From positions 97,059-161,058 of the forward strand of contig JBGAHR010000002.1 of assembly GCA_044226045.1 (NCBI GenBank): a DNA stretch of 64,000 nt. The letters run 5' to 3'. The notes under the pieces are model-generated. The model was given only the letters and a program-made list of their open reading frames with translations. It was not told where the DNA came from and made no database searches. Made by a program: the position numbers and the translations under genes. Source of the DNA: Chitinophagaceae bacterium (GTDB lineage Bacteria; Bacteroidota; Bacteroidia; Chitinophagales; Chitinophagaceae). Positions 43,042 through 63,379 of the stretch are shown here, in pieces. Every line of letters begins with the position of its first letter. The stretch's first letter is position 1.

Positions 43042-43875
43042 ATGGAAAGACGCGCTGTAGATGTAGTCGTTATTTCTGATGTACACCTTGGAACATTCGG
43101 CTGTCGTGCCAAGGAACTGGTGGCTTACCTTAAAAGCATCAATCCAAACATTCTTATTCTGAATGGGGATATCATTGATGGCTGGCAGTTCTCCCGAAGA
43201 TATTTCCCTGCCACTCATATGGCGGTCATCAAAGAAATACTGAACCTGATGATGAAAGGAACAAGAGTGTTCTACATCACCGGTAATCACGATGAGCTTC
43301 TCCGCCGATACACCGATTTCAACCTGAGCAATTTTACCCTGACCGATAAACTGGTGCTGGAGATCAACAACAAGATGACCTGGATCTTCCATGGCGATGT
43401 ATTCGACAACACCACCAAAGGAAGCGCCAAACTATTGGCCAAACTGGGAAGCAATGGATACGGAATGCTCATCCTTTTCAATCGCGCGATAAACTCTTTA
43501 TTGAAGCTCGTTGGCAAAGACCCTGTTTCTATTTCCAAAAGTATCATGGCCAGTGTAAACAAGGCTGTTACCAAGATCAACGATTTTGAACAGATTGCCG
43601 CCGAACTGGCCATCGAAAAAAAATTCGATTATGTGATCTGCGGACATATTCACCAGCCACAGCAAAGAGTAATAGAAACAGAACAGGGCAAGGTCACTTA
43701 TCTGAACAGCGGCGACTGGGTAGAACATTTAACAGCCCTCGAATATCATCACGATACCTGGAAAATCTTTACCTACAACGAAAAGGATTTCGAACATACC
43801 GCTATTCAGTTTGAGGCGAATCCGAACGTGATGACGGACGAAATCAGTTTCTATATCAATTCACTGGCTATTTAA
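43042..43875 (+). CDS. Metallophosphoesterase of the UDP-2,3-diacylglucosamine diphosphatase/YbbF group (PlcP-like)
   Basis: SDVHLG, LNGDIID, GNHD, FHGD, CGHIH, NSGDW. Confidence 0.85.
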   Translation: MERRAVDVVVISDVHLGTFGCRAKELVAYLKSINPNILILNGDIIDGWQFSRRYFPATHMAVIKEILNLMMKGTRVFYITGNHDELLRRYTDFNLSNFTLTDKLVLEINNKMTWIFHGDVFDNTTKGSAKLLAKLGSNGYGMLILFNRAINSLLKLVGKDPVSISKSIMASVNKAVTKINDFEQIAAELAIEKKFDYVICGHIHQPQQRVIETEQGKVTYLNSGDWVEHLTALEYHHDTWKIFTYNEKDFEHTAIQFEANPNVMTDEISFYINSLAI

Positions 43876-43885
43876 ACAATCAGGT

Positions 43886-44920
43886 ATGAAAATATTTTAT
43901 GCAGTGCAGGCTACCGGAAACGGACACATCAGCCGCGCAATGGAGCTGCTGCCTTATTTACAGCAATATGGAAAAGTAGATATCTTTCTCAGCGGTGCCA
44001 ATAGTACCCTTTCACTCGACGGGCCAGTAAAGTATCGGAGCAAAGGCTTAAGTCTTTTCTACACCTGCGATGGCGGCCTTGATTATTCAAAAATTGTCAG
44101 CAATATCGCACCTCTGCGCATCATGAAAGAGGTAAGGGACCTGCCGGTAGAAAAATATGACCTGGTGATCAATGATTTTGATTGTATCACTTCCCTGGCC
44201 TGTTCCAAAAAGAAGATTCCATCGGTAAACTTCGGTCACCAGGCAAGCTTTCTATCACCCAATACCCCACGCCCGGAAAAACCCAGCCGGATGGGAGAAT
44301 GGATCTTAAAAAACTATGCCCGGGCCACCCACCATATCGGCCTTCACTTTCAATCCTACGACGACTTTATTTATTCCCCGGTGGTTAAAGAAGAAATTCT
44401 GAAAGCAACTCCATCCGATAAAGGATATATTACGGTTTACCTGCCCTCCTATTGTGATCAGCAATTAAAGAATACTTTCAGCCGGTTCTCCCAACATCGT
44501 TTCGAAATCTTTTCTCATCAAAAAAAGGAAATTACGTTTGAAGGTAATATTCGCTGGCTTCCGGTAGACAGGCATCAATTCAACCGCAGCCTGATTAACT
44601 GTCATGGAATTATTACCTGCGGTGGGTTTGAAACGCCTGCGGAAGCCCTGTATCTTCAAAAGAAAATCATCTCCATTCCCATCCAGGGTCAGTACGAACA
44701 GCAATGCAATGGCGCGGCATTGGCCAGGCTGGGCGTTCCCGTTCTCTCCAAAATCACCGACGACTTCGATGATCATTTCAACGGATGGATAGAACAGAAA
44801 CAATCTCCCCGGGTTACTTACGCCCATACTACAGAAGATATCATCCAAAAACTAATGCTCCGTTGCAGCAACCTCCGCTTCGAACTAGACTTCACCTATC
44901 CTGACCTGATCTTTAACTGA
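43886..44920 (+). CDS. Glycosyltransferase family protein (GT-B, MJ1255-like)
   Basis: QATGNGHISRA, LVINDF, ITCGGFETPAEALYL, QYEQQCN. Confidence 0.85.
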   Translation: MKIFYAVQATGNGHISRAMELLPYLQQYGKVDIFLSGANSTLSLDGPVKYRSKGLSLFYTCDGGLDYSKIVSNIAPLRIMKEVRDLPVEKYDLVINDFDCITSLACSKKKIPSVNFGHQASFLSPNTPRPEKPSRMGEWILKNYARATHHIGLHFQSYDDFIYSPVVKEEILKATPSDKGYITVYLPSYCDQQLKNTFSRFSQHRFEIFSHQKKEITFEGNIRWLPVDRHQFNRSLINCHGIITCGGFETPAEALYLQKKIISIPIQGQYEQQCNGAALARLGVPVLSKITDDFDDHFNGWIEQKQSPRVTYAHTTEDIIQKLMLRCSNLRFELDFTYPDLIFN

Positions 44921-44925
44921 TACGT

Positions 44926-44964
44926 ATTATTCGTATAATTCGTGTAATTCGTGTAATTCGTGTA
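44926..44964. repeat. AATTCGTGT nonamer array
   Basis: attcgtat aattcgtgt aattcgtgt aattcgtgt. Confidence 0.8.
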
Positions 44965-44965
44965 C

Positions 44966-44998
44966 AAAAAAAAGGTCCCCTGGTAGAAACCAGGGGAC
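44966..44998 (-). terminator. Minus-strand intrinsic terminator with GT-TTCT-AC loop and no upstream CDS
   Basis: GTCCCCTGGT AGAA ACCAGGGGAC perfect stem with A8 on the plus side. Confidence 0.8.
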
Positions 44999-45065
44999 AC
45001 TGTCACATGAGAAAAATTCTGATTAGATAACCAAAACGTATCATTGAATAACCAAAAGAACTACG
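44966..45065 (-). ncRNA. Candidate small RNA (about 100 nt)
   Basis: Lies between two minus-strand terminators; internal TTTTGGTTAT x2; upstream Pho-type hexamers; no ORF of note. Confidence 0.35.
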
Positions 45066-45142
45066 GGCTGCAAGTTGCAGTTGGAATGTTACTTCAACGT
45101 GAAAGACTGTTATGCTACTATTAATAGTTTCGAAGGGTCCAT

Positions 45143-45172
45143 AAAAAAACCTCCCCCGTAAAACGGAGGAGG
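45143..45172 (-). terminator. Terminator of the TBDR-lipoprotein operon
   Basis: CCTCCCCCGT AAA ACGGAGGAGG with a G-U pair on minus; A7 on plus. Confidence 0.78.
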
Positions 45173-45204
45173 CTGTACATCGAAAAAGAGTATGTGCGTA
45201 GGGA

Positions 45205-46665
45205 TTACTTACCGTTGAAAGAAGTCCAACCTTTCCACCAGGTAGCATCTTCACCAGCCGGAGCGATTGCACCACGGAAGGTTACTACTTTAAAGAAAGG
45301 ATCAGCCACTTTTGGATCAGTGAAAGCTGCGCCATTCAGGATTTTCTGGTTACCGCTTGAACCGGCAAACGGAGTAGGATCCGGAGCAGCGTAGTTGAAC
45401 GGTTGAATCAATTTAGCATCCGCAGAGTTCGTCAGGATGTCGTTGTTGTAGAAGCTGCTGGTAAACCAGGTCAGCATGCTGGCATCTGATTCGCCGGTTG
45501 GAGCGCTTCCACTTACAGAATATTTAATATTGATGGTGTTACCTGCCAGTGTAGTATTGCGGATGCGGAGCGTGCTGTCTTTGATGTTCAGATCGGTTGG
45601 TGTACCGGTGCTGGCATCGATCAGAATACCCTGTGGCCAACCCATGATGATGGAGTTGTAAATAGACAGTGCCGAGTTCCTGCGGATCTGTGCACCTGCA
45701 CGGAACAGTGAGTTACCGGCATTATTTAATGTAGCGCGGGGACCGATAGCAGTGATGTTGGAGAAAACTGCGCTGGTTTTGGGAGTAGCTGTTGTACCAC
45801 TGGCGTTGTTATCGCTCTCGAAAGCTTCCGAGGTAGAAATGTCAGCGATCAGTGAATCACGAATCACGAGACCAAACTGAACTTTTCCGGAGAAACCGTT
45901 ATCGGTATCGAAATCGTCGTCCTGTGTTTTGTAGGCAATGAGGTATTTGCAATTAACGGTACCACCAAACCATTCGTAAGCATCATCCTTTGCATAGATC
46001 ACCTGAACGTGATCGATAGTAGTGCCACTACCAACGGCAGCCAATGTAAGGCTGTTGATCTCTTTATCAGGCTGGAAGGCATAGCCGGCATATTCAATTC
46101 TTACGTATTTCAGGGTGCCTGAGTTATCGTCGGAAACCGGCGTGGGGGCCACTGCGTCGCCAGAACCGGCAAGACCATCGCCGTTGGCATTGTCGATACC
46201 ACCTTCAACCTGGTACAGTCCGTTCACACCATTGAAGCTGGTGTTGATAGGCGCTTTACCGCAAAGAACGATTCCACCCCAGTCGCCTGAGCTTGGATTC
46301 GGAGCAGCCGAAGTGAAGATGATGGGTTCGGTAGCTGTACCCACCGCATTGATTTTAGAACCACGCGTAATGATCAGAGCAGCCACATCACTTCCACTGA
46401 AGGAACCTTTAATCACTGTACCCGCTTCGATATTCATGGTATGATTGCCTACCATGTATACCAGTCCTTTCAGAATATAAGTATTCTCTTTGCGAAGCGT
46501 AGTATCGGCATTGATCCTGCCAGACAAAGTGATCGTCTGACCGGTGCTTCCACCACCAGGGCCTGGAACGATGATGATTTCTTTTTCACCATCCATTTCA
46601 ATTTTACGGCAGGCGTTGAAAGCGAGTCCTGCGAAAGCGACTAAAAACAAAATACTCTTTTTCAT
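45205..46665 (-). CDS. Uncharacterised outer-membrane lipoprotein, probable right-handed beta-helix
   Basis: Lipobox LAFNAC; repeated beta-coil patterns (SGTLKYVRIEYAG, DDAYEWFGG, DDDFDTDNG, AFESDN). Confidence 0.8.
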   Translation of the reverse strand: MKKSILFLVAFAGLAFNACRKIEMDGEKEIIIVPGPGGGSTGQTITLSGRINADTTLRKENTYILKGLVYMVGNHTMNIEAGTVIKGSFSGSDVAALIITRGSKINAVGTATEPIIFTSAAPNPSSGDWGGIVLCGKAPINTSFNGVNGLYQVEGGIDNANGDGLAGSGDAVAPTPVSDDNSGTLKYVRIEYAGYAFQPDKEINSLTLAAVGSGTTIDHVQVIYAKDDAYEWFGGTVNCKYLIAYKTQDDDFDTDNGFSGKVQFGLVIRDSLIADISTSEAFESDNNASGTTATPKTSAVFSNITAIGPRATLNNAGNSLFRAGAQIRRNSALSIYNSIIMGWPQGILIDASTGTPTDLNIKDSTLRIRNTTLAGNTINIKYSVSGSAPTGESDASMLTWFTSSFYNNDILTNSADAKLIQPFNYAAPDPTPFAGSSGNQKILNGAAFTDPKVADPFFKVVTFRGAIAPAGEDATWWKGWTSFNGK

Positions 46666-46696: not shown

Positions 46697-49481
46697 TTAT
46701 AATGAATAACTGAACGTGATGCCGAAAGTGGTTCCAAACTTCCTGGTGAAACGATAAGCGTCTTTCCCTTTCTGGAAGGTTGTTTTGCTGTCGGCATTCT
46801 GGTAGAAATATTGTGTCTGGTTCAGGAGATCCTGTACATTCAGCCTGATCTCAGCTTTGTTCTTCAGGAATTTCTTGGATGCCTGGAAGTCGAGCAATCC
46901 GCGGGGTGCCTCGTAAATATCAGGAGAACCCGCACCGGATGTTAAATCACCCACCAGATAAATTCTTTCGCCGATCTGGTTGAAGAGAAGCGTAAAGTTC
47001 AAACCGGCTTTCTCTACATCATACAACAAGCCGAGGTTGATCAGGTAGGGAGACTGCCCTTGCAGAGGACGATCGACCTGGAAGCCTTTGTCTTTAATAC
47101 GGCTGTAGATATAAGCGGCATTGGCCTGGAAAGTGAAGTTGCCCAATCCCTTGATGAAGTCCAGTTTCTTGCGAAACTCCACCTCAGCGCCATACGAAGT
47201 TGCTTTCTCGGGATTCTGGAAACTGAAAGTGCTTGCACCACCGCTGCCTTCATTGAAGATCTGCTCGATGGGCTTATCGAAATGTTTGTAAAATACACCT
47301 GCTGTGAGCACTTCACCCGCACGTGGATACAACTCGTAACGCAAATCGAAATTGGTTACCTTGGTACGCTCCAGGTTCGGGTTACCCTGTACAGAGGCAT
47401 TCAATTCGAAATCATAAATATTCAGGAACGACAGCTCTCTCAGTTCTGGTCTGATCACCGTTTGTGATCCCGAGAGACGAATATTGGTCTTGGCGTTGAC
47501 TTTATAAGTAGCATTCAGACCGGGCAGGAAATCGGTTACCTGTGTATGTGTGTGTCTTGGGTCGTATTTCTTTACACTTCCTACCAGCTGATCGTAGTTT
47601 TCGATACGAAGTCCCCATACCACGCGAAGTGCGTCTGTAAGCTGGTTATCCAACTGAAGGAAGCCGCCATTCAGAATGGTATTAGCGAGGTAACGGAACG
47701 TGTTTCCTTTGATGGCATCAAATCCAAACTTGTTACCGGTGCCATCACCAAAATTGGCAGGATCAAAAACCACATCGGGTGCCAGTTGACGAAGGGCGTC
47801 ATTGTCTATTGGAAGGTAGTTGGCAAAAAGTTTCGCGTCATACAGGCGGTCTTTGATCTGCAACATATAACCGCCTTTCAGTGCCTGCCCTCTGCCACCA
47901 AACATTTTGAAATTGTAAGTAAGATCACCACCTGCCGTATAGATATAGTCGCTCAGGTTCTGGTAGATACGGCTACCGCTTTGTTGTGAAAGGGTGTTGG
48001 AGATCACCAGTCTGTAAGGGTCATTGGAGCCCTGCGACTTTGAATACAGGATTCTTCTCTGATCGGGAATATAACCATCGAGGATGTTGAAAGCTCCGTA
48101 CCATTTCAGCTTAAGCGGCTTTAATATAGTGTGGTCGCCGGATGCCTGTACAGTAAAGAAGGTATTTTGTTTGAAAGTCAACTCGGGTCCTGAGAGGTCA
48201 TCATCGCGGTTGTAATCGATACCGCTCCTGCGGGTAACGTAGTTGGGAGAGTTGACATTCACAATTGATTTGATAGATATCTTGTTGAAGTTGTTCAGCT
48301 GAATGCTCAGGCTTCCCAATGCACCTACCTGCACATCCTGGATATACCGATCATCGTTGAAATTGTAGTTGGTACTGAAAACTGTTCCAGACAATGAATT
48401 GGAGCGGTTCAACAAACGGAGGTAACGATTGGTCTTATTATAAGTAACACCCAGCGTACCACCAATAGTCTTCCCAAAAAGTTTTGTATTGAAGCCCCCA
48501 TTCAATTGGAAAGAAGTATTCAGGGGAGCTGACGTTTTCTCCGGAGTCCAGGCATTCCTTAATTGCTTTCCGATGGCAGTCTTCTGTGCAGGCGTCAATA
48601 CGTCGAAGTCTGATTTAGTGGTATAGGAAGAAGGCAGACCGCGGGTGCCATCATCGATGCCCAGCCAGTCTGTTCTGCCGCCTTTGTCTTTGTAAAAATC
48701 CTTTCCAATGGTTTGTGAGTTGAAACCGGTGCCCACCTGTACATTCAAAAATCCTTTAGAGGGAATGTCTTTTGTATTCACCTGGATCAATCCGCCCGCC
48801 CATTCACCAGGATACTCTGGCACGAATGCTTTATTGATAACGATATTATCAATCATGGCTGCAGGGATCAGATCAAAAGAGAATGTTTTACGATCGGGCT
48901 CCGTACTGGAGAAAGGATACCATTCAGCATCGCCTGGTTGTAGCGATCGGCCAACCCTCTTACAATAATGAATCGTCCTTCCTGGATACTGGCACCTGGC
49001 GTACGCTTCAGGACTTCACCCGTGTTTTTATCGGGAGAACGGCGAATGGTTTCAGCAGAAATAACAGAAGCCACCGTATTGGTGTTCTTCTGGAAGGATA
49101 TCATCGAAGCGGCTGTTTCGCGGCGGGCGTTTGTTCTGTTGGCCGTAACCGTAACAGCACCCAGGTTTTTACTCGATACAGACAGCACGATATTCAGTTC
49201 GGTTACCTTTCCTTCTGCCACTTCAATTTCGTCAACCGTCTTTTTTTCGTAGCCAACCGCAGAATTCGAGGGTATATTTTTTTCCAGCCGCGAGCGTAAG
49301 CAGGAAGTTACCTTCACCGGAACTGGTAACACCTCCCGGAGCGCGGAAATTTTAATAGATACGCCGGCAACCGGTTCATTCTTTTTCATTGAGAACCTTA
49401 CCGGATATCTTGCCTGTTTTGAGAGAACGCAGTAAACGAACAAATCAACAGGGCCAGGAGTAGGAGGTAATTTTTGCTCAC
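46697..49481 (-). CDS. TonB-dependent receptor; 5' part frameshifted in this copy
   Basis: Continuous ORF 46697-48856 ending in GITFSYSL; indels near 48912, 49260, 49340 and 49385 relative to the second copy. Joining 53916-53004 to 48570-46697 gives one 2787-nt frame (928 aa). Confidence 0.8.
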
Positions 49482-49588
49482 GAGTAACTGTTTATTTGCG
49501 GCAAAAGTATCCCCGCACTGTTACCGTCCTGTTACTCCAATGTAATGGAATTGTGACCTCAATGTTACCGGAATGTTACCTGCCTGGT

Positions 49589-50888
49589 TTAGAAGCGGTA
49601 TTGCATGCGGCAGGTGAAGATATTATCGGCCAGATCGGTGGTGTAGCCGGTCAGATTGGTCTTTTCATTGTTAACAAAATGATACCAGAGCAACAGCTTC
49701 ACGTTCTCATTGATATAATAATTATAGCCCACACCATAGTTGGTATATTTAATATTAGTGGCATTCACTTTGGTTCGCCTTTCCAATATCTTTTCCCACA
49801 CTTTCGTGTTAGATCGTACCAATCCAGTTTGAACGCAAGCTGGTGATAGGTGTTAACAATGTTCTGAAGAAAATAAATAAATGCGCCGTTGAATGGACGT
49901 ATATAATAACTGGTAGCGCCCAATAATACACCGGTGTTTCGCTGGTAGCAGCACTCGAAGTTGATGCCCACCAGTACTCCCCCTGATTTCCGTGAAGCCC
50001 CACTGGTGTTTCAGTTTACGCACCTGGGCATCGAACCCGTAATATTTCGGGGATTTTAGTGCCCACATTGAGAGGAGTGAATCCACTTCAAAGGTTTCGC
50101 CGGATATGCCCTTTCGCTACCTGGTATTCGTATTTCTTACTTTGCAGAATACCGCCATTCATGGTGAGAACCCCGCTGAAACAAAAAACGCTCTTATTAA
50201 TAGGTAAGGCTTCCAGCGATTCTTCCGATATAATCCTTGTATTGATCAAACTCTCCCGGTCCGTTCAAACCCTGACCATTGAACACACCCAGGTCAATCT
50301 TGAAAAATCTAAACCGGGAGGCAGGATTCAGCTTTCAGAAGCTGACCATCGCTCCACGAAGGTCTCTTTTTCGGTTTTTCATCAATGTCTGAGGCATGCG
50401 GCCACGCTCCGGCGATTCCCGATCCGTGAAGCAAGGTTAACTTCATATCCAAAAGGACGGGCAAACACCCCTGTGGTAAAGGCAAATTGTCTCCATTTAT
50501 TTTCAAACAAACGAATCCAGGCATCCCGCACATTTACGCCTCGTTCTGTTGCATCGATCTGAAAAACGAATTGCATAAGAGGGCTGCTGGTATTGATTGG
50601 ACCTTAGATAATCGAGTCGTATCCTGCTTCGGCGAAGCACGAACCGATCATTCGAATTCGTTGCAAATCACCCCCTTCAAAAGTGCGTGCACCCCTTTGA
50701 TTGTGAAACCGGAATTGAGGCTGAATAACCACTGAAACGCAACCGGTCATATCTGTATAAATATCAAGTATCCCTTTCGCCACAGACTTGCTCGTATCGA
50801 TCATATCCATGAGAAACTGGCTTTCAGCTACTTGAACAAGCAGTAAAAACGTAATAAAGAAGTTTCAGGAGTTAACAATTGCTTCGCT
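49589..50888 (-). pseudogene. Frameshifted copy of the phosphate-selective porin gene
   Basis: Fragments match 54024-55340; start codon lost. Confidence 0.85.
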
Positions 50889-51012
50889 GTTAAATTAACA
50901 TTTCGCGCAAAAGGTAAAAGGAGCCTCGGACGCCCCGTATTAAATTGTTACCAAATGTTTCCTCTTGCCGGGTTGGTCTATTTCGACTAATCTTTGCGCA
51001 AAACTTAGTTCC

Positions 51013-51644
51013 ATGGGATTGAATTCAATCATGAAGTGCTTTACGCCAAAAGACAGGCTTTATTCTTTTTGAAGAAGTGGCAGACAATCATTTCTGCGAT
51101 GGGCAAGACCCCTCAAAAGTGGTGACAGAACCCGATTTTTGATAAAGAGCCTCCATCATCTCCAAAGTAGAAGACCTGGAACACCAGAATGATGAAATGA
51201 CTCACCGCATTTTCACCGAACTGGGTCGCAATTTCATCACATCCTCGATCGCGAAGACATTCACTACTGGCTTCAGCTCCTGGATGATATCTGCGATTAT
51301 ACCGCCACAGCACAAAAGATCAACTTCTATAAAATAAACCTACAATGATGGTATCCAGAAAATGGCCAATCTGGATTCGAGCAGGGTTCGTGACCATATC
51401 CGTACCGCGGTTGCGAACTGCGTAACATGCGCAATATGCGCAGCATTACCGATGCGCTGGTAAAGTGAATAGTATTGAAAACCAGACGGACGATATTTTT
51501 GACTGTAGCATCGACCGTTTGTTCGAAACAGAACCCGACGCGAAAGAAGTGATCAAAGAAATCTACCAGGTGATGGAAGTGGTGATTGATAAATGCGAAG
51601 ATGCCGCCAATGTAATTGAGTCCATCATCATCAAATACGCATAA
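51013..51644 (+). pseudogene. Frameshifted copy of the DUF47 gene
   Basis: Matches 55465-56112 with deletions. Confidence 0.85.
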
Positions 51645-53002: not shown

Positions 53003-53916
53003 CCGATGGCAGTCTTCTGTGCAGGCGTCAATACGTCGAAGTCTGATTTAGTGGTATAGGAAGAAGGCAGACCGCGGGTGCCATCATCGATGCCCAGCCA
53101 GTCTGTTCTGCCGCCTTTGTCTTTGTAAAAATCCTTTCCAATGGTTTGTGAGTTGAAACCGGTGCCCACCTGTACATTCAAAAATCCTTTAGAGGGAATG
53201 TCTTTTGTATTCACCTGGATCAATCCGCCCGCCCATTCACCAGGATACTCTGGCACGAATGCTTTATTGATAACGATATTATCAATCATGGCTGCGGGGA
53301 TCAGATCAAAAGAGAATGTTTTACGATCGGGCTCCGTACTGGAGAGAAGGATACCATTCAGCATCGCCTGGTTGTAGCGATCGGCCAACCCTCTTACAAT
53401 AATGAATCGTCCTTCCTGGATACTGGCACCTGGCGTACGCTTCAGGACTTCACCCGTGTTTTTATCGGGAGAACGGCGAATGGTTTCAGCAGAAATAACA
53501 GAAGCCACCGTATTGGTGTTCTTCTGGAAGGATATCATCGAAGCGGCTGTTTCGCGGCGGGCGTTTGTTCTGTTGGCCGTAACCGTAACAGCACCCAGGT
53601 TTTTACTCGAAACAGACAGCACGATATTCAGTTCGGTTACCTTTCCTTCTGCCACTTCAATTTCGTCAACCGTCTTTTTTTCGTAGCCAACCGCAGAGAA
53701 TTCGAGGGTATATTTTTTTCCAGCCGCGAGCGTAAGCAGGAAGTTACCTTCACCGGAACTGGTAACACCTCCCGGAGCGCCGGAAATTTTAATAGATACG
53801 CCGGCAACCGGTTCATTCTTTTCATTGAGAACCTTACCGGATATCTTGCCTGTTTGAGAGAACGCAGTAAACGAACAAATCAGCAGGGCCAGGAGTAGGA
53901 GGTAATTTTTGCTCAC
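53003..53916 (-). pseudogene. Intact but truncated 5' third of the TonB-dependent receptor (second copy)
   Basis: ORF 52927-53916 follows the TBDR to AQKTAIG, then runs into repeat sequence at the junction. Confidence 0.85.
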
Positions 53917-53936
53917 GAGTAACTGTTTATTTGCGG

Positions 53937-54014
53937 CAAAAGTATCCCCGCACTGTTACCGTCCTGTTACTCCAATGTAATGGAATTGTGACCTCAATGT
54001 TACCGGAATGTTAC
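53937..54014 (-). promoter_or_regulatory. TBDR promoter: -7 TACTTTTG plus six 11-bp-periodic TGTTAC boxes
   Basis: 53954 TGTTAC, 53965 TGTTAC, 53976 TGTAAT, 53987 TGTGAC, 53998 TGTTAC, 54009 TGTTAC; duplicated at about 49502-49579. Confidence 0.82.
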
Positions 54015-54023
54015 CTGCCTGGT

Positions 54024-55340
54024 TTAGAAGCGGTATTGCATGCGGCAGGTGAAGATATTATCGGCCAGATCGGTGGTGTAGCCAGTCAGATTGGTCTTTT
54101 CATTGTTAACAAAATGATACCAGAGCAACAGCTTCACGTTCTCATTGATATAATAATTATAGCCCACGCCATAGTTGGTATATTTAATATTAGTGGCATT
54201 CACACTGGTTCCAGCCTTTCCAATATCTTTTCCCGACACTTTCGTGTTGGGATCGTACCAATCCAGTTTGAACGCAAGCTGGTGATGGGCGTTAACAATG
54301 TTCTGAAGAAAATATATAAATGCGCCGTTGAATGGACGTATATAGTAACCTTCGGTAGCGCCCAATAATACACCCGGTGTTTCGCTGGTAGCAGCACTCG
54401 AAGTTTGAGTACCCCACCAGTACTCCCCCCTGATTTCCGTGAAGCCCCACTGGTGTTTCAGTTTTACCTGGGCATCGAACCCGTAATATTTCCGGGGATT
54501 TTTAGTGCCCACATTGGAGAGGGAGGAATCCACTTCAAAGGTTTCGCCGGCGGTGCCTTTTGCTACCTGGTATCTGTATTTGTTACTTTGCAGAATACCG
54601 CCATTCAGATATGAGAACCCCGCTGAAACAAACACGCTCTTATTAATAGGGTAAGGCTTCAAGGCGATTCTTCCGATATAATCCTTGTATTGATCAAACT
54701 CTCCCGGTCCGTTCAAACCCTGACCATTGAACACACCCAGGTCAATCTTGAAAAATCTAAACCGGGAGGCAGGATTCCGGCTTTCGAAGCTGACCATCGC
54801 TCCGAGGTCTCTTTCGGTTTTCATCAATGTCTGAGACATGCGGCCACGCTCCGGCGATTCCCGATCAGAAGAAGCAAGGTTAACTTCATATCCAAAAGGA
54901 CGGGCAAACACCCCTGTGGTAAAGGCAAATTGTCTCCATTTATTTTCAAACAAACGAATCCAGGCATCCCGCACATTTACGCCTCGTTCTGTTGCATCGA
55001 TCTGAAAAACGAATTGCATAGAGGGCTGCTGGTATTGATTGGACCTTACATAATCGAGTCGTATCCTGCTTCGGCGAAGCATGAACCGATCATTCGAATT
55101 CGTTGCAAAATCACCCCCTTCAAAAGTGCGTGCACCCTTTGATTGTGAAACCTGGAATTGCGGCTGAATATAACCACTGAAACGCAACCGGTCATATCTG
55201 GTATAAATATCAAGTATCCCTTTCGCTACAGACTTGCTCGTATCGATCATATCCATGAGAAACTGGCTTTCAGCTACTTGAACAAGCAGTAAAAACGTAA
55301 TAACAAAAAGAAGTTTCAGGGGAGTTAACAATTGCTTCAT
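54024..55340 (-). CDS. Phosphate-selective porin O/P-like outer-membrane protein
   Basis: Signal peptide; RFSGYIQPQFQ, FMLRRSRIR, VRDAW, TGVFARPFG; C-terminal YRF; context. Confidence 0.8.
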   Translation of the reverse strand: MKQLLTPLKLLFVITFLLLVQVAESQFLMDMIDTSKSVAKGILDIYTRYDRLRFSGYIQPQFQVSQSKGARTFEGGDFATNSNDRFMLRRSRIRLDYVRSNQYQQPSMQFVFQIDATERGVNVRDAWIRLFENKWRQFAFTTGVFARPFGYEVNLASSDRESPERGRMSQTLMKTERDLGAMVSFESRNPASRFRFFKIDLGVFNGQGLNGPGEFDQYKDYIGRIALKPYPINKSVFVSAGFSYLNGGILQSNKYRYQVAKGTAGETFEVDSSLSNVGTKNPRKYYGFDAQVKLKHQWGFTEIRGEYWWGTQTSSAATSETPGVLLGATEGYYIRPFNGAFIYFLQNIVNAHHQLAFKLDWYDPNTKVSGKDIGKAGTSVNATNIKYTNYGVGYNYYINENVKLLLWYHFVNNEKTNLTGYTTDLADNIFTCRMQYRF

Positions 55341-55358
55341 GTTAAATTAACATTGGCG

Positions 55359-55448
55359 CAAAGGTAAAAGGAGCCCGGACGCCCCGTATTAAGAAATTGT
55401 TACCAAATGTTTCCTCTTGCCGGGTTGGTCTATTTCGACTAATCTTTG
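55359..55448. promoter_or_regulatory. Divergent porin / DUF47-pit promoters with phased hexamers
   Basis: Minus -7 TACCTTTG at 55359-55366; hexamers 55387 TATTAA, 55398 TGTTAC, 55409 GTTTCC; plus TTG at 55417 and AATCTTTG at 55441. Confidence 0.65.
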
Positions 55449-55464
55449 CGCAAAACTTAGTTCC

Positions 55465-56112
55465 ATGGGATTGAATTCAATCATGAAGCTTTTTACGCCA
55501 AAAGACAGGGTTTTTTATTCTCTTTTTGAAGAAGTGGCAGATAATGTTTCTGCGATGGGCAAGACCCTCAAAGAAGTGGTGACAGAACCCGATTTTGATA
55601 AAAGAGCCTCCATCATCTCCAAAGTAGAAGACCTGGAACACCAGAATGATGAAATGACTCACCGCATTTTCACCGAACTGGGTCGCAATTTCATCACTCC
55701 TTTTGATCGCGAAGACATTCACTACCTGGCTTCAGCCCTGGATGATATCTGCGATTATACTTTCGCCACAGCCAAAAAGATCAACTTCTATAAAATAAAC
55801 CCCAATGATCAGGGTATCCAGAAAATGGCCGACCTGATCGAGCAGGGTTGTGACCATATCCGTACCGCGGTTAAGGAACTGCGTAACATGCGCAATATGC
55901 GCAGCATTACCGATGCGCTGGTAAAAGTGAATAGTATTGAAAACCAGGCGGACGATATTTTTGACCTTAGCATCGACCGTTTGTTCGAAACAGAACCCGA
56001 CGCGAAAGAAGTGATCAAAAAAAGGGAAATCTACCAGGTGATGGAAGTGGTGACTGATAAATGCGAAGATGCCGCCAATGTAATTGAGTCCATCATCATC
56101 AAATACGCATAA
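55465..56112 (+). CDS. DUF47 family (PhoU-like) phosphate transport regulator
   Basis: FITPFDREDIHYLASALDDICD, IENQADDIF, TDKCEDAANVI; upstream of PiT. Confidence 0.92.
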   Translation: MGLNSIMKLFTPKDRVFYSLFEEVADNVSAMGKTLKEVVTEPDFDKRASIISKVEDLEHQNDEMTHRIFTELGRNFITPFDREDIHYLASALDDICDYTFATAKKINFYKINPNDQGIQKMADLIEQGCDHIRTAVKELRNMRNMRSITDALVKVNSIENQADDIFDLSIDRLFETEPDAKEVIKKREIYQVMEVVTDKCEDAANVIESIIIKYA

Positions 56113-63173: not shown

Positions 63174-63255
63174 CCATCGCCCCGAGATGCGCTGCCAGTT
63201 CAGACAATTACTACCAACCTGATTTCAAAATAGGTGTTTTTCATAGGTTAGCAAC

Positions 63256-63286
63256 GGCCGGCTCTGTTAAGAGCGGGCCTTTTTTT
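63256..63286 (+). terminator. Intrinsic terminator of the ECF operon
   Basis: GGCCGGCTCT GTTA AGAGCGGGCC TTTTTTT. Confidence 0.8.
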
Positions 63287-63379
63287 AATCTCGAATTATG
63301 CGAATTAGGCGAATTGCGGTTGTCTGTTCCGATTAGGCTAAATTTGCAAATCGTTAAATCTGGCAAGAAATAAATTGGC

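Follow-up and report, generated by a model that had tools for sequence, protein, structure and literature searches.

A candidate small RNA gene of an undescribed Chitinophagaceae family, predicted to pair with a susC translation start

Introduction

What does a bacterial genome keep between two consecutive terminators that have no credible coding sequence between them? The question is raised by a short gap on the minus strand of a Chitinophagaceae bacterium (assembly GCA_044226045.1, contig JBGAHR010000002.1), located within the 64-kb stretch of DNA that was analysed and that we refer to as the window. The initial annotation of this gap had proposed a phosphate-regulated small RNA (sRNA) of about 100 nt with a duplicated U-rich motif. 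Here we follow up that proposal by comparing the locus with its relatives, with a focus on what the RNA may target, how widely its relatives are distributed, and whether the link to phosphate holds.

Most likely the region is a genuine sRNA gene, conserved among relatives and belonging to a Chitinophagaceae family not described before, whose apparent signature is a single-stranded seed, (A)GAAUUUUUCUCAUGUGAC, directly ahead of an intrinsic terminator with the loop GGUUUCUACC. The reading we favour, with a probability of about 0.62, is that of a trans-acting, base-pairing RNA of ~99 nt, belonging to a multi-copy family, that would repress translation of a SusC-like transporter and be transcribed from its own hexamer promoter, probably under the regulator of the surrounding phosphate island. 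Gene conservation, terminators, seed–target complementarity, and family distribution were computed here. Genomes of relatives are cited by G-labels (the genome under study is G000), contigs by C-labels, and sRNA-like loci by L-labels.

A probable RNA gene between two terminators

The gap and its borders contain the following features, given in the direction of transcription.

45141..45174, minus strand: terminator 1, of the TonB-receptor/lipoprotein operon (stem-loop 45174-45148, T-run to 45141; 12-bp stem, 7 GC, T7)
45087..45124, minus strand: hexamer array TTAATA 45124-45119, ATAACA 45113-45108, TTCACG 45103-45098, GTAACA 45092-45087 (spacing 11/10/11 bp)
45070..45077, minus strand: putative -7-like promoter element CAACTTGC, 9 nt past the last hexamer
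44966..45064, minus strand: predicted sRNA transcript of ~99 nt, with a probable 5' end near GUAGUUCUUUU and the 3' end in the T8 run
45048..45057, minus strand: first UUUUGGUUAU motif, which with its flank reads UUUUGGUUAUUCAAU; lineage-specific
45027..45036, minus strand: second UUUUGGUUAU motif, paired in the minimum free energy (MFE) fold with AAUCAGAAU just 5' of the seed; not conserved beyond G003
44999..45020, minus strand: seed AGAAUUUUUCUCAUGUGACAGU directly before the terminator, with the core UUUUCUCAUGUGAC at 45015-45002 as the family signature
44966..44998, minus strand: terminator 2, of the sRNA (stem 44998-44975, loop GGUUUCUACC, T8 at 44973-44966; 10-bp stem, 7 GC)

Between the two minus-strand terminators there is no credible coding sequence. 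Terminator 1 forms the upstream border of the sRNA gene and lies directly 3' of a 486-aa minus-strand open reading frame (ORF; 45205-46665) that has no Pfam match and is located after a TonB-dependent receptor gene; every ortholog has a terminator of its own at this site, with differing sequences. The second strong terminator of the initial annotation was confirmed with its 10-bp stem and T8. On the plus strand, its hairpin (44975-44998) is preceded by A8 and followed by no T-run, and it can thus serve as a terminator for the minus strand only; the convergent plus-strand glycosyltransferase gene ends at 44920. The gap contains a single ORF (45003-45275, 90 aa, GTG start), which overlaps the two terminators and likewise lacks a Pfam match. 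A small protein was also considered and rejected: the plus-strand ORFs with an MRK start have 3–31 codons and are not conserved, a 13-codon minus-strand ORF (MIRFGYLIRIFLM) is frame-shifted in G003 as judged by eye, an AUG-UGA start-stop is not general, and the short ORFs of the locus are not conserved on either strand. An Rfam 15 scan of 43500-46500 (E<=10) returned nothing significant—PyrR, mmgR, and Ref55 matched the terminators at chance level, far under their thresholds.

BLAST of the gap, together with tblastn of the neighbouring proteins, placed the element between the 3' ends of the lipoprotein and glycosyltransferase genes in ten species of the same genus; in G006, the promoter-like block and the seed are present in another context, without the lipoprotein gene. 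Alignment of the 11 intergenic regions revealed two conserved blocks, one promoter-like and one of seed plus terminator, with a variable stretch of 37–65 nt between them. Block 1, directly after terminator 1, reads TTAAT, rTAAyA, TnAy, GTAAyr, exactly 9 nt, and nAnnTTGC in 11/11 sequences, such that [G/T]TAA[C/T][A/G]-9 nt-nAnnTTGC is kept at all 11 orthologous loci. Block 2 is UUUUCUCAUG(U)(G/A)AC, with the terminator immediately after it. Ahead of the hairpin, UUUCUCAUG is invariant in 11/11 orthologs and the full 14-nt core UUUUCUCAUGUGAC is found in 7/11, with diverging flanks; in a first alignment of 13 sequences the whole core was kept throughout. The terminator stem covaries between species, with double changes in 7/8 pairs, and the loop sequence is conserved across genera. 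No common secondary structure was found 5' of the seed within the genus. The comparison of these 11 loci argues for an independent minus-strand sRNA of about 100 nt with a promoter-like block of its own, as had been proposed, and the position of that block would set the 5' end near 45064-45060.

The duplicated U-rich motif fared less well. The duplication itself is real: TTTTGGTTAT at 45057-45048 and 45036-45027 has no further copy in the window, where 0.31 are expected and two copies were reached in 3/100 shuffles; genome-wide there are 16 copies against ~9 expected. As the defining functional part of the RNA, however, the motif did not hold up—UUUUGGUUAU falls within the variable middle, where conservation of the RNA is lowest, and is double in G000 and G003, single in G009, G012, G006, and G005, and absent from 5/11 orthologs (G002, G011, G004, G008, and G007); the conserved U-rich stretch is UUUUCUCAUGUGAC instead. 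The first-motif region makes a 15-nt perfect antisense match with positions -24..-10 of a 907-aa TonB-receptor-like gene at C30:54237, which is at chance level (E=0.58). When the 5' half of the RNA was used to scan for duplexes by energy, the top matches were implausible and rich in bulges, with no enrichment of TonB receptors, a result that we do not rely on.

Two further observations concern the vicinity and possible partners of the RNA. Directly after the sRNA terminator, at 44926-44961 of the window (minus strand), there are four tandem 9-mers (ACGAATTAC, ACGAATTAC, ACGAATTAT, and ACGAATAAT), a microsatellite with many matches at other loci of the same genome and of G003, G023, and G028. 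On another contig, C60:5941-5990 (plus strand) reads UUGAAUAACCAAAACCAACUGCCAAGG, followed by a terminator hairpin and a T-run, and 14 nt of it are complementary to UUUUGGUUAUUCAA of the focal RNA; it might act as a sponge or partner of that RNA, or the complementarity could be fortuitous (E about 2).

The predicted susC target

The genome has one further copy of the 14-mer core, on contig C43, which lies antisense across the start of a SusC-like gene of 1030 aa. This start reads ...AUUAACAGUCAC AUG AGA AAA AUU CUA..., and the protein begins MRKILSLLAVLVLCSVFAFAQ (also given as MRKILSLLAVLVL...). The seed AGAAUUUUUCUCAUGUGAC is perfectly antisense to 19 nt of the susC sequence (C43:27884-27902, positions -5..+14) and matches at 21/22 overall (blastn-short E=0.002). 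Ranked by duplex energy among 8372 start regions, the susC site comes third, at -29.3 kcal/mol (mean -12.3, sd 3.3); it forms a continuous helix, which the two sites ranked above it do not. The initial annotation had expected U-rich seeds to pair with A-rich translation starts; this was correct in kind, although the pairing stretch is UUUUCUCAUGUGAC and not the duplicated motif. The target operon encodes SusC, SusD, a BT_3987_N-like surface protein, a hypothetical protein, and a TlpA-like thioredoxin. Weaker seed matches (13–15 nt) fall on other genes with an MRKI... start, including two more that encode proteins of TonB-receptor size; the mRNAs of other such outer-membrane or secreted proteins may be weaker targets.

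Seed and target can also be followed among relatives. The 14-mer core search of 61 relatives gave 26 occurrences of GTCACATGAGAAAA, all in family members, against 1 for the reversed control, and these occurrences are of two kinds: the start of an orthologous susC with a conserved leader, and loci that combine an A-run, a hairpin (loop GTAGAAAC), and the motif with short ORFs that are not conserved, in other words sRNA genes read from the opposite strand. A typical relative has one susC ortholog start and 1–4 sRNA-like loci with hairpin and T-run. Several genomes have an sRNA copy near the susC ortholog: G154 at 300 nt in divergent orientation, G178 at 270 nt on the upstream side, and seven others at 13–20 kb. 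Outside the invariant core, some lineages show changes in both seed and target:

Own genus: target ACAGUCAC, sRNA GUGACUGU
G178, G202, and G017: target AUAGUCAC, sRNA GUGACUAU
G124: target AUAUGCAC, sRNA GUGCAUAU (19 nt, G-U pairs counted)
G227: position preserved through a G-U pair

We regard these co-changes as supportive of the predicted pairing, not as rigorous.

Distribution of the family and its paralogs

The covariance model of seed plus terminator, R1, matches 196/301 Chitinophagaceae genomes and 105/151 genera, with 1–8 copies each (E<=0.01); about 148 of the 196 genomes remain at E<=0.001. At the latter threshold R1 matched 1 of about 292 other Bacteroidia and did not extend to Bacteroidales, which argues that the model does more than find terminators. 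The exact pattern of seed and loop is found at 69 loci in 185,579 species, where about 0.05 are expected. These loci belong to Puia, Niastella, Pseudoflavitalea, Paraflavitalea, Flavitalea, Longitalea, Foetidibacter, Danxiaibacter, and unnamed Chitinophagaceae, along with a few metagenome-assembled genomes labelled only as Bacteroidota, Bacteroidetes, Chitinophagales, or Sphingobacteriales; no locus is assigned by name to a different family. Cultured carriers include Pseudoflavitalea rhizosphaerae KACC 18655, Puia dinghuensis CGMCC 1.15448, and Niastella caeni HX-16-21, whereas all genomes of the focal genus are metagenome-assembled. In its own genome R1 has 8 matches (E<=0.01, strict filters) or 12 (E<=0.1), which include looser paralogs at C29, C30, C18, C89, and C83; one match falls on the C43 susC target itself, in antisense. 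Other family members occupy unlinked, differently flanked loci.

Several of the relatives have properties of their own. The paralog at C29:12028-12082 (minus strand) consists of GAAUUUUUCUCAUGUCC and a terminator, with a 5' hairpin CAGUUUC..GAAACUG; the divergently oriented gene at C29:12892 (plus strand), which encodes 982 aa, has this paralog ~800 nt upstream. The start of that gene (GACUG AUG AGA AAA AUU CUG) is complementary over 13–15 nt to both the C29 paralog and the focal RNA. The largest subfamily, found in other genera (L060, L061, L062, L064, L066, L068, L070, L071, L073, L074, L075, L076, L080, and L087), has a conserved 5' domain in which the arms follow the order P1-5' (CCGGGGA), P2-5' (CGCAAC), P1-3' (UCCCUGG), P2-3' (GUUGCG), which is pseudoknot-like. 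Both helices show compensatory changes by eye, for instance CCGGAGA/UCUCCGG and CAGCAAUCU/AGAUUGCUG; this domain is absent from the focal genus.

The focal genus also has a second sRNA-like family, at C83:71761-71831 (plus strand), C17:70500-70570 (minus strand), and C35:21092-21163 (plus strand) of G000 and at L126, L127, L131, L138, L143, and L144. It reads UUUUUCUCAU(A)AG(C/U)AGUUAGUUUUGGUUA(A/G), then a terminator that shares the GUUUCUAC loop; its 30-nt stretch resembles the seed consensus of the Bacteroides sRNA FopS and includes the GUUUUGGUUA motif of the focal RNA. A perfect target for this second family was not found in its own genome. A third conserved module, at C30:17382-17452 (minus strand) of G000 with relatives at L128, L129, L133, L134, L135, L141, and L124, reads UUUUUUUCAUAUGGCAAGCAAUCGUU(A/G)A..., then a terminator with the loop GUUUC(U/C)AC; in C30b, G002c, G004c, and G008d it stands directly after the end of a conserved ORF.

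The promoter-like block and the phosphate question

The neighbourhood of the sRNA gene encodes a phosphate-selective porin, PhoU_div with a PHO4 transporter, and a PlcP-like phosphoesterase with a glycosyltransferase; the island carries PhoU_div (DUF47) and a PHO4-type transporter in place of PhoU. Within the gap, the Pho-type hexamers were present where they had been annotated, with one spacing of 10 instead of 11 (11/10/11), and so was the poor -7-like box near 45071 (45070-45077), a weak consensus match whose register is kept in 11/11 orthologs. The four GTAACA-like hexamers are putative binding sites of an activator of the OmpR/PhoB type. A related layout is found at the TonB-receptor promoter of the window, where six GTAACA-type hexamers at 11 bp are followed by 9 nt and then TACTTTTG; the arrangement GTAACA-9 nt-TA(ct/gt)TTTG is retained in G007, G011, and G005, and thus in four species including the focal one. 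The sRNA block has an identical 9-nt register, but nAnnTTGC instead of TAnnTTTG. Together, the shared hexamer phase, the 9-nt register, and the phosphate genes nearby make co-regulation by one OmpR/PhoB-type regulator a reasonable inference. The focal copy would then probably obey the putative regulator of the surrounding phosphate-acquisition island, and its regulation by phosphate is suggested by neighbourhood and motif.

Other promoter readings were rejected. If the second TTTTGG served as -7 box the RNA would have 58 nt; G002, G011, G004, and G008 have no TTTTGG. A sigma-54 reading (-24/-12) and an ECF-type reading (-35 GTAAC / -10 CGTx) of the conserved block both misfit in their spacings, as judged by eye.

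In a genome-wide scan for hexamer arrays only three strong ones were found, two of them in the window and one before dnaB. The two in the window belong to a segment of ~2.5 kb that is present twice (48570-51048 and 53003-55500, 4.43–4.45 kb apart, 83–100% identity per block), which explains why the strongest array occurs twice there. The segment holds the hexamer array, the N-terminal part of the TonB receptor (CarboxypepD_reg + Plug), and part of the porin gene, and it represents either a recent segmental duplication or an assembly artefact. The best GTAACA array of the genome (22/24) is the third, at C78:17182 (minus strand), with CTAACA, ATAACA, GTAACA, and GTAACA at 11 bp, ~165 nt upstream of dnaB; this position is at odds with a phosphate regulon.

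Comparison with known systems

In Bacteroides thetaiotaomicron the FopS family counts 14 paralogs of 65–70 nt, each with its seed at the 5' end and a terminator; they inhibit translation of susC, an effect that the RRM protein RbpB counteracts, and have canonical housekeeping promoters and a bile response, and one member is derived from a 3' untranslated region (UTR) (Ruttiger et al. 2025, PMC11697453). Like FopS (and GibS), the family described here is a multi-copy Bacteroidota sRNA with a single-stranded U-rich seed and a Rho-independent terminator, and as in FopS the seed is antisense to the start-codon region of the mRNA for a SusC-like transporter, with repression predicted by analogy. 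The 'UUUUUC..CAU' anti-start character of the focal seed recurs in the FopS seed consensus GUGUUUUUCAUAGUAUUAGAUUUAAGGUUAACAAA, and the focal genome has two genes for RRM_1 RNA-binding proteins, as in Bacteroides. The architectures would differ: the FopS seed is at the very 5' end, whereas in the focal family it abuts the terminator behind a predicted variable 5' part of 40–65 nt—for the focal RNA, the promoter-like block predicts ~99 nt with 45 nt ahead of the seed. The focal copy also has a hexamer array of the response-regulator type where FopS has housekeeping promoters.

Membership in FopS itself (RF04319) was rejected, with no match at the locus and a best genome match of 27.7 bits at C108:81646 against a threshold of 56 bits; the Bacteroides thetaiotaomicron control was positive. 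The 35-nt FopS consensus scored 29.7 against the genome and 28.3 against the best shuffles, which is uninformative. The second-best RF04319 match, at 24.8 bits and also below threshold, is at 63234-63289 of the window (plus strand), where GUUUUUCAUAGGUUAGCAAC is followed by a strong terminator (GGCCGGCUCU..AGAGCGGGCC, U-run); this may be another sRNA directed against start codons, with AUGAAAAA starts as its candidate targets.

In enterobacteria, OmrA and OmrB are paralogous sRNAs, activated by OmpR-family regulation, that repress mRNAs of TonB-dependent receptors at the translation start; they are Hfq-dependent and have a 5' seed. They are the nearest analogue for a chain from response regulator to sRNA to TonB receptors, but belong to another phylum and have no sequence relation, and in the focal RNA response-regulator control is presumed. 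A further parallel is found in DonS and DonS-like RNAs, which, in the account that PMC11697453 gives of Cao et al. 2016, are encoded opposite their own polysaccharide utilization loci and repress susC-led operons of Bacteroides as cis-antisense RNAs. The focal RNA resembles DonS in being aimed at a susC-led operon, and in G154 and G178 the target susC has a family member no more than 300 nt away; DonS acts in cis, however, whereas for the focal RNA, encoded on another contig than its target, action in trans is predicted.

Alternative explanations

Two alternatives would deny the gap a promoter of its own. The RNA could be derived from the 3' UTR of the TonB-receptor/lipoprotein operon, with polymerases that pass terminator 1 stopping at terminator 2 and the tail that carries the seed, perhaps once processed, serving as the sRNA; co-regulation with the operon would then be automatic. 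The RNA is on the same strand and directly downstream of the operon in 10/11 species, its -7-like element is weak, and a 3'-UTR origin has a precedent in one FopS member, but terminator 1 is strong (12 bp, T7) and present in every ortholog, a phase-conserved promoter-like block separates the terminators, G006 has block and seed without the lipoprotein gene, and other members of the family are unlinked and differently flanked. On balance we consider this origin improbable. Far harder to sustain is the suggestion that there is no RNA gene at all, the second hairpin being a backup terminator of the operon or the terminator of the convergent glycosyltransferase gene and the rest being spacer. Convergent genes often share terminator regions; here, however, the hairpin has no T-run on the plus strand, UUUCUCAUG and the core UUUUCUCAUGUGAC are conserved (11/11 and 7/11) between diverging flanks, the same module recurs at many unlinked loci in 105 genera, and the 19-nt antisense match to susC would be left unexplained.

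Other alternatives accept the RNA and change its mode of action. The duplicated UUUUGGUUAU motifs could be its active part, pairing with AACCAAAA-type leaders of many mRNAs or titrating an RNA-binding protein. Their two copies 21 nt apart exceed the 0.31 expected in the window, and the complement AACCAAAAC occurs 81 times (36 expected), with 17 copies <=45 nt upstream of an ORF start; moreover, there is the 15-nt match in the leader of a TonB-receptor-like gene, a related GUAGUUAGUUUUGGUUA stretch in the second sRNA-like family of the genus, a GGUUAAC that is shared with the FopS seed consensus, and the presence of RRM proteins. Set against this are the absence of the motif from 5/11 orthologs, its place in the variable middle, and the chance level of the 15-nt match (E=0.58), such that we give this proposal a small chance, and at best the motifs would supplement the conserved seed with a function particular to this lineage. 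That the focal RNA serves as guide in a dCas12f-sigmaE system for RNA-guided transcription is scarcely credible. Known Bacteroidota guides of this type are 85–105 nt long with a structured 5' scaffold, are mostly aimed at susCD operons, and have a 14–16-nt guide at the RNA 3' end with an intergenic target upstream of the gene (Hoffmann et al. 2026, PMC13472631). The focal RNA is likewise a Bacteroidota RNA of ~100 nt with a short stretch matching a susCD locus, and the large subfamily has a conserved, structured 5' domain. Yet no Cas12f/TnpB domain passes its threshold in the 99.99% complete genome (PF07282 best 18.5 bits, PF01385 none), the matching stretch is followed by the terminator hairpin and T-run and is thus not the RNA 3' end, the match spans the start codon instead of an upstream intergenic site, and the 'guide' part is conserved with a variable 'scaffold' part, the opposite of a guide RNA.

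The preferred reading, a trans-acting RNA that represses susC from its own regulated promoter, has its own difficulties, and those listed here weigh against it. Expression of the sRNA is itself deduced from the sequence. The -7-like element matches the TAnnTTTG consensus weakly, with A2, T5, and T6 kept, and no -33 element was found at the promoter-like block. Measured against GTAACA, the hexamer array reaches 18/24; arrays of that score are no more frequent in the genome than in a reversed-sequence control, and so the array alone is not significant; because strong arrays occur only in the window and before dnaB, a 'Pho regulon' is not demonstrated. No PhoU (PF01895) domain was found in the whole genome. 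The pairing is also imperfect: the sRNA has one mismatch with its own C43 target (GACAGU against ACAGUC), and the MFE fold engages a portion of the extended seed in pairs with the UUUUGGUU motifs. In a matched-versus-permuted test of 28 genomes, which set a single sRNA copy against one or two susC genes in each, own pairing had a mean of 16.3 nt and foreign pairing 14.9, a weak difference, and in ~10 of the genomes the chosen susC was not the best partner. In G004, G008, and G007 seed and target are both altered without compensation, leaving 9–11 contiguous pairs.

Proposed mechanism and outlook

For the trans-acting sRNA that we favour, we infer the transcription start, repression, and phosphate control as follows. 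The TonB-receptor operon shares the promoter layout, which is why one OmpR/PhoB-type regulator would probably activate both, plausibly when phosphate is limiting. Since the sRNA and its susC target lie on separate contigs, the RNA would act in trans through its short conserved seed, pairing with positions -8 to +14 of the C43 susC-susD mRNA and covering the start codon and the A-rich initiation region; we propose that 30S binding would thereby be blocked and translation repressed. Synthesis of a housekeeping SusC would be lowered while phosphate-scavenging receptors are made.

A broader view, which we hold only tentatively and think rather doubtful as it stands, is that of a family-wide network, in which 1–12 paralogous sRNAs with a common anti-susC seed would be driven by different promoters, each relaying its own signal to the translation of a single conserved SusCD importer, with the focal copy as the phosphate arm and with an origin independent of FopS. 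A PhoB-type regulator would in this network turn on phosphate-scavenging TonB receptors and, via the sRNA, turn off housekeeping SusC. If true, this would be the first circuit in Bacteroidota that leads from Pho through an sRNA to an outer-membrane transporter.

To our knowledge, experimental sRNA control of SusC-type transporters has so far been found only in gut Bacteroides (FopS, GibS, and DonS), and the Bacteroidota are, as far as we know, a phylum without Hfq and ProQ. The family described here would be unrelated to the Bacteroides sRNAs and equally widespread, in soil and freshwater Chitinophagaceae and in about two thirds of the sampled genomes. Its sharply defined seed and single conserved predicted main target make it unusually testable by reporters and compensatory mutations, and its covariance model can be used for annotating Chitinophagaceae genomes. 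The link of the focal copy to a phosphate island suggests that, in these bacteria, nutrient stress may re-allocate outer-membrane transport capacity.

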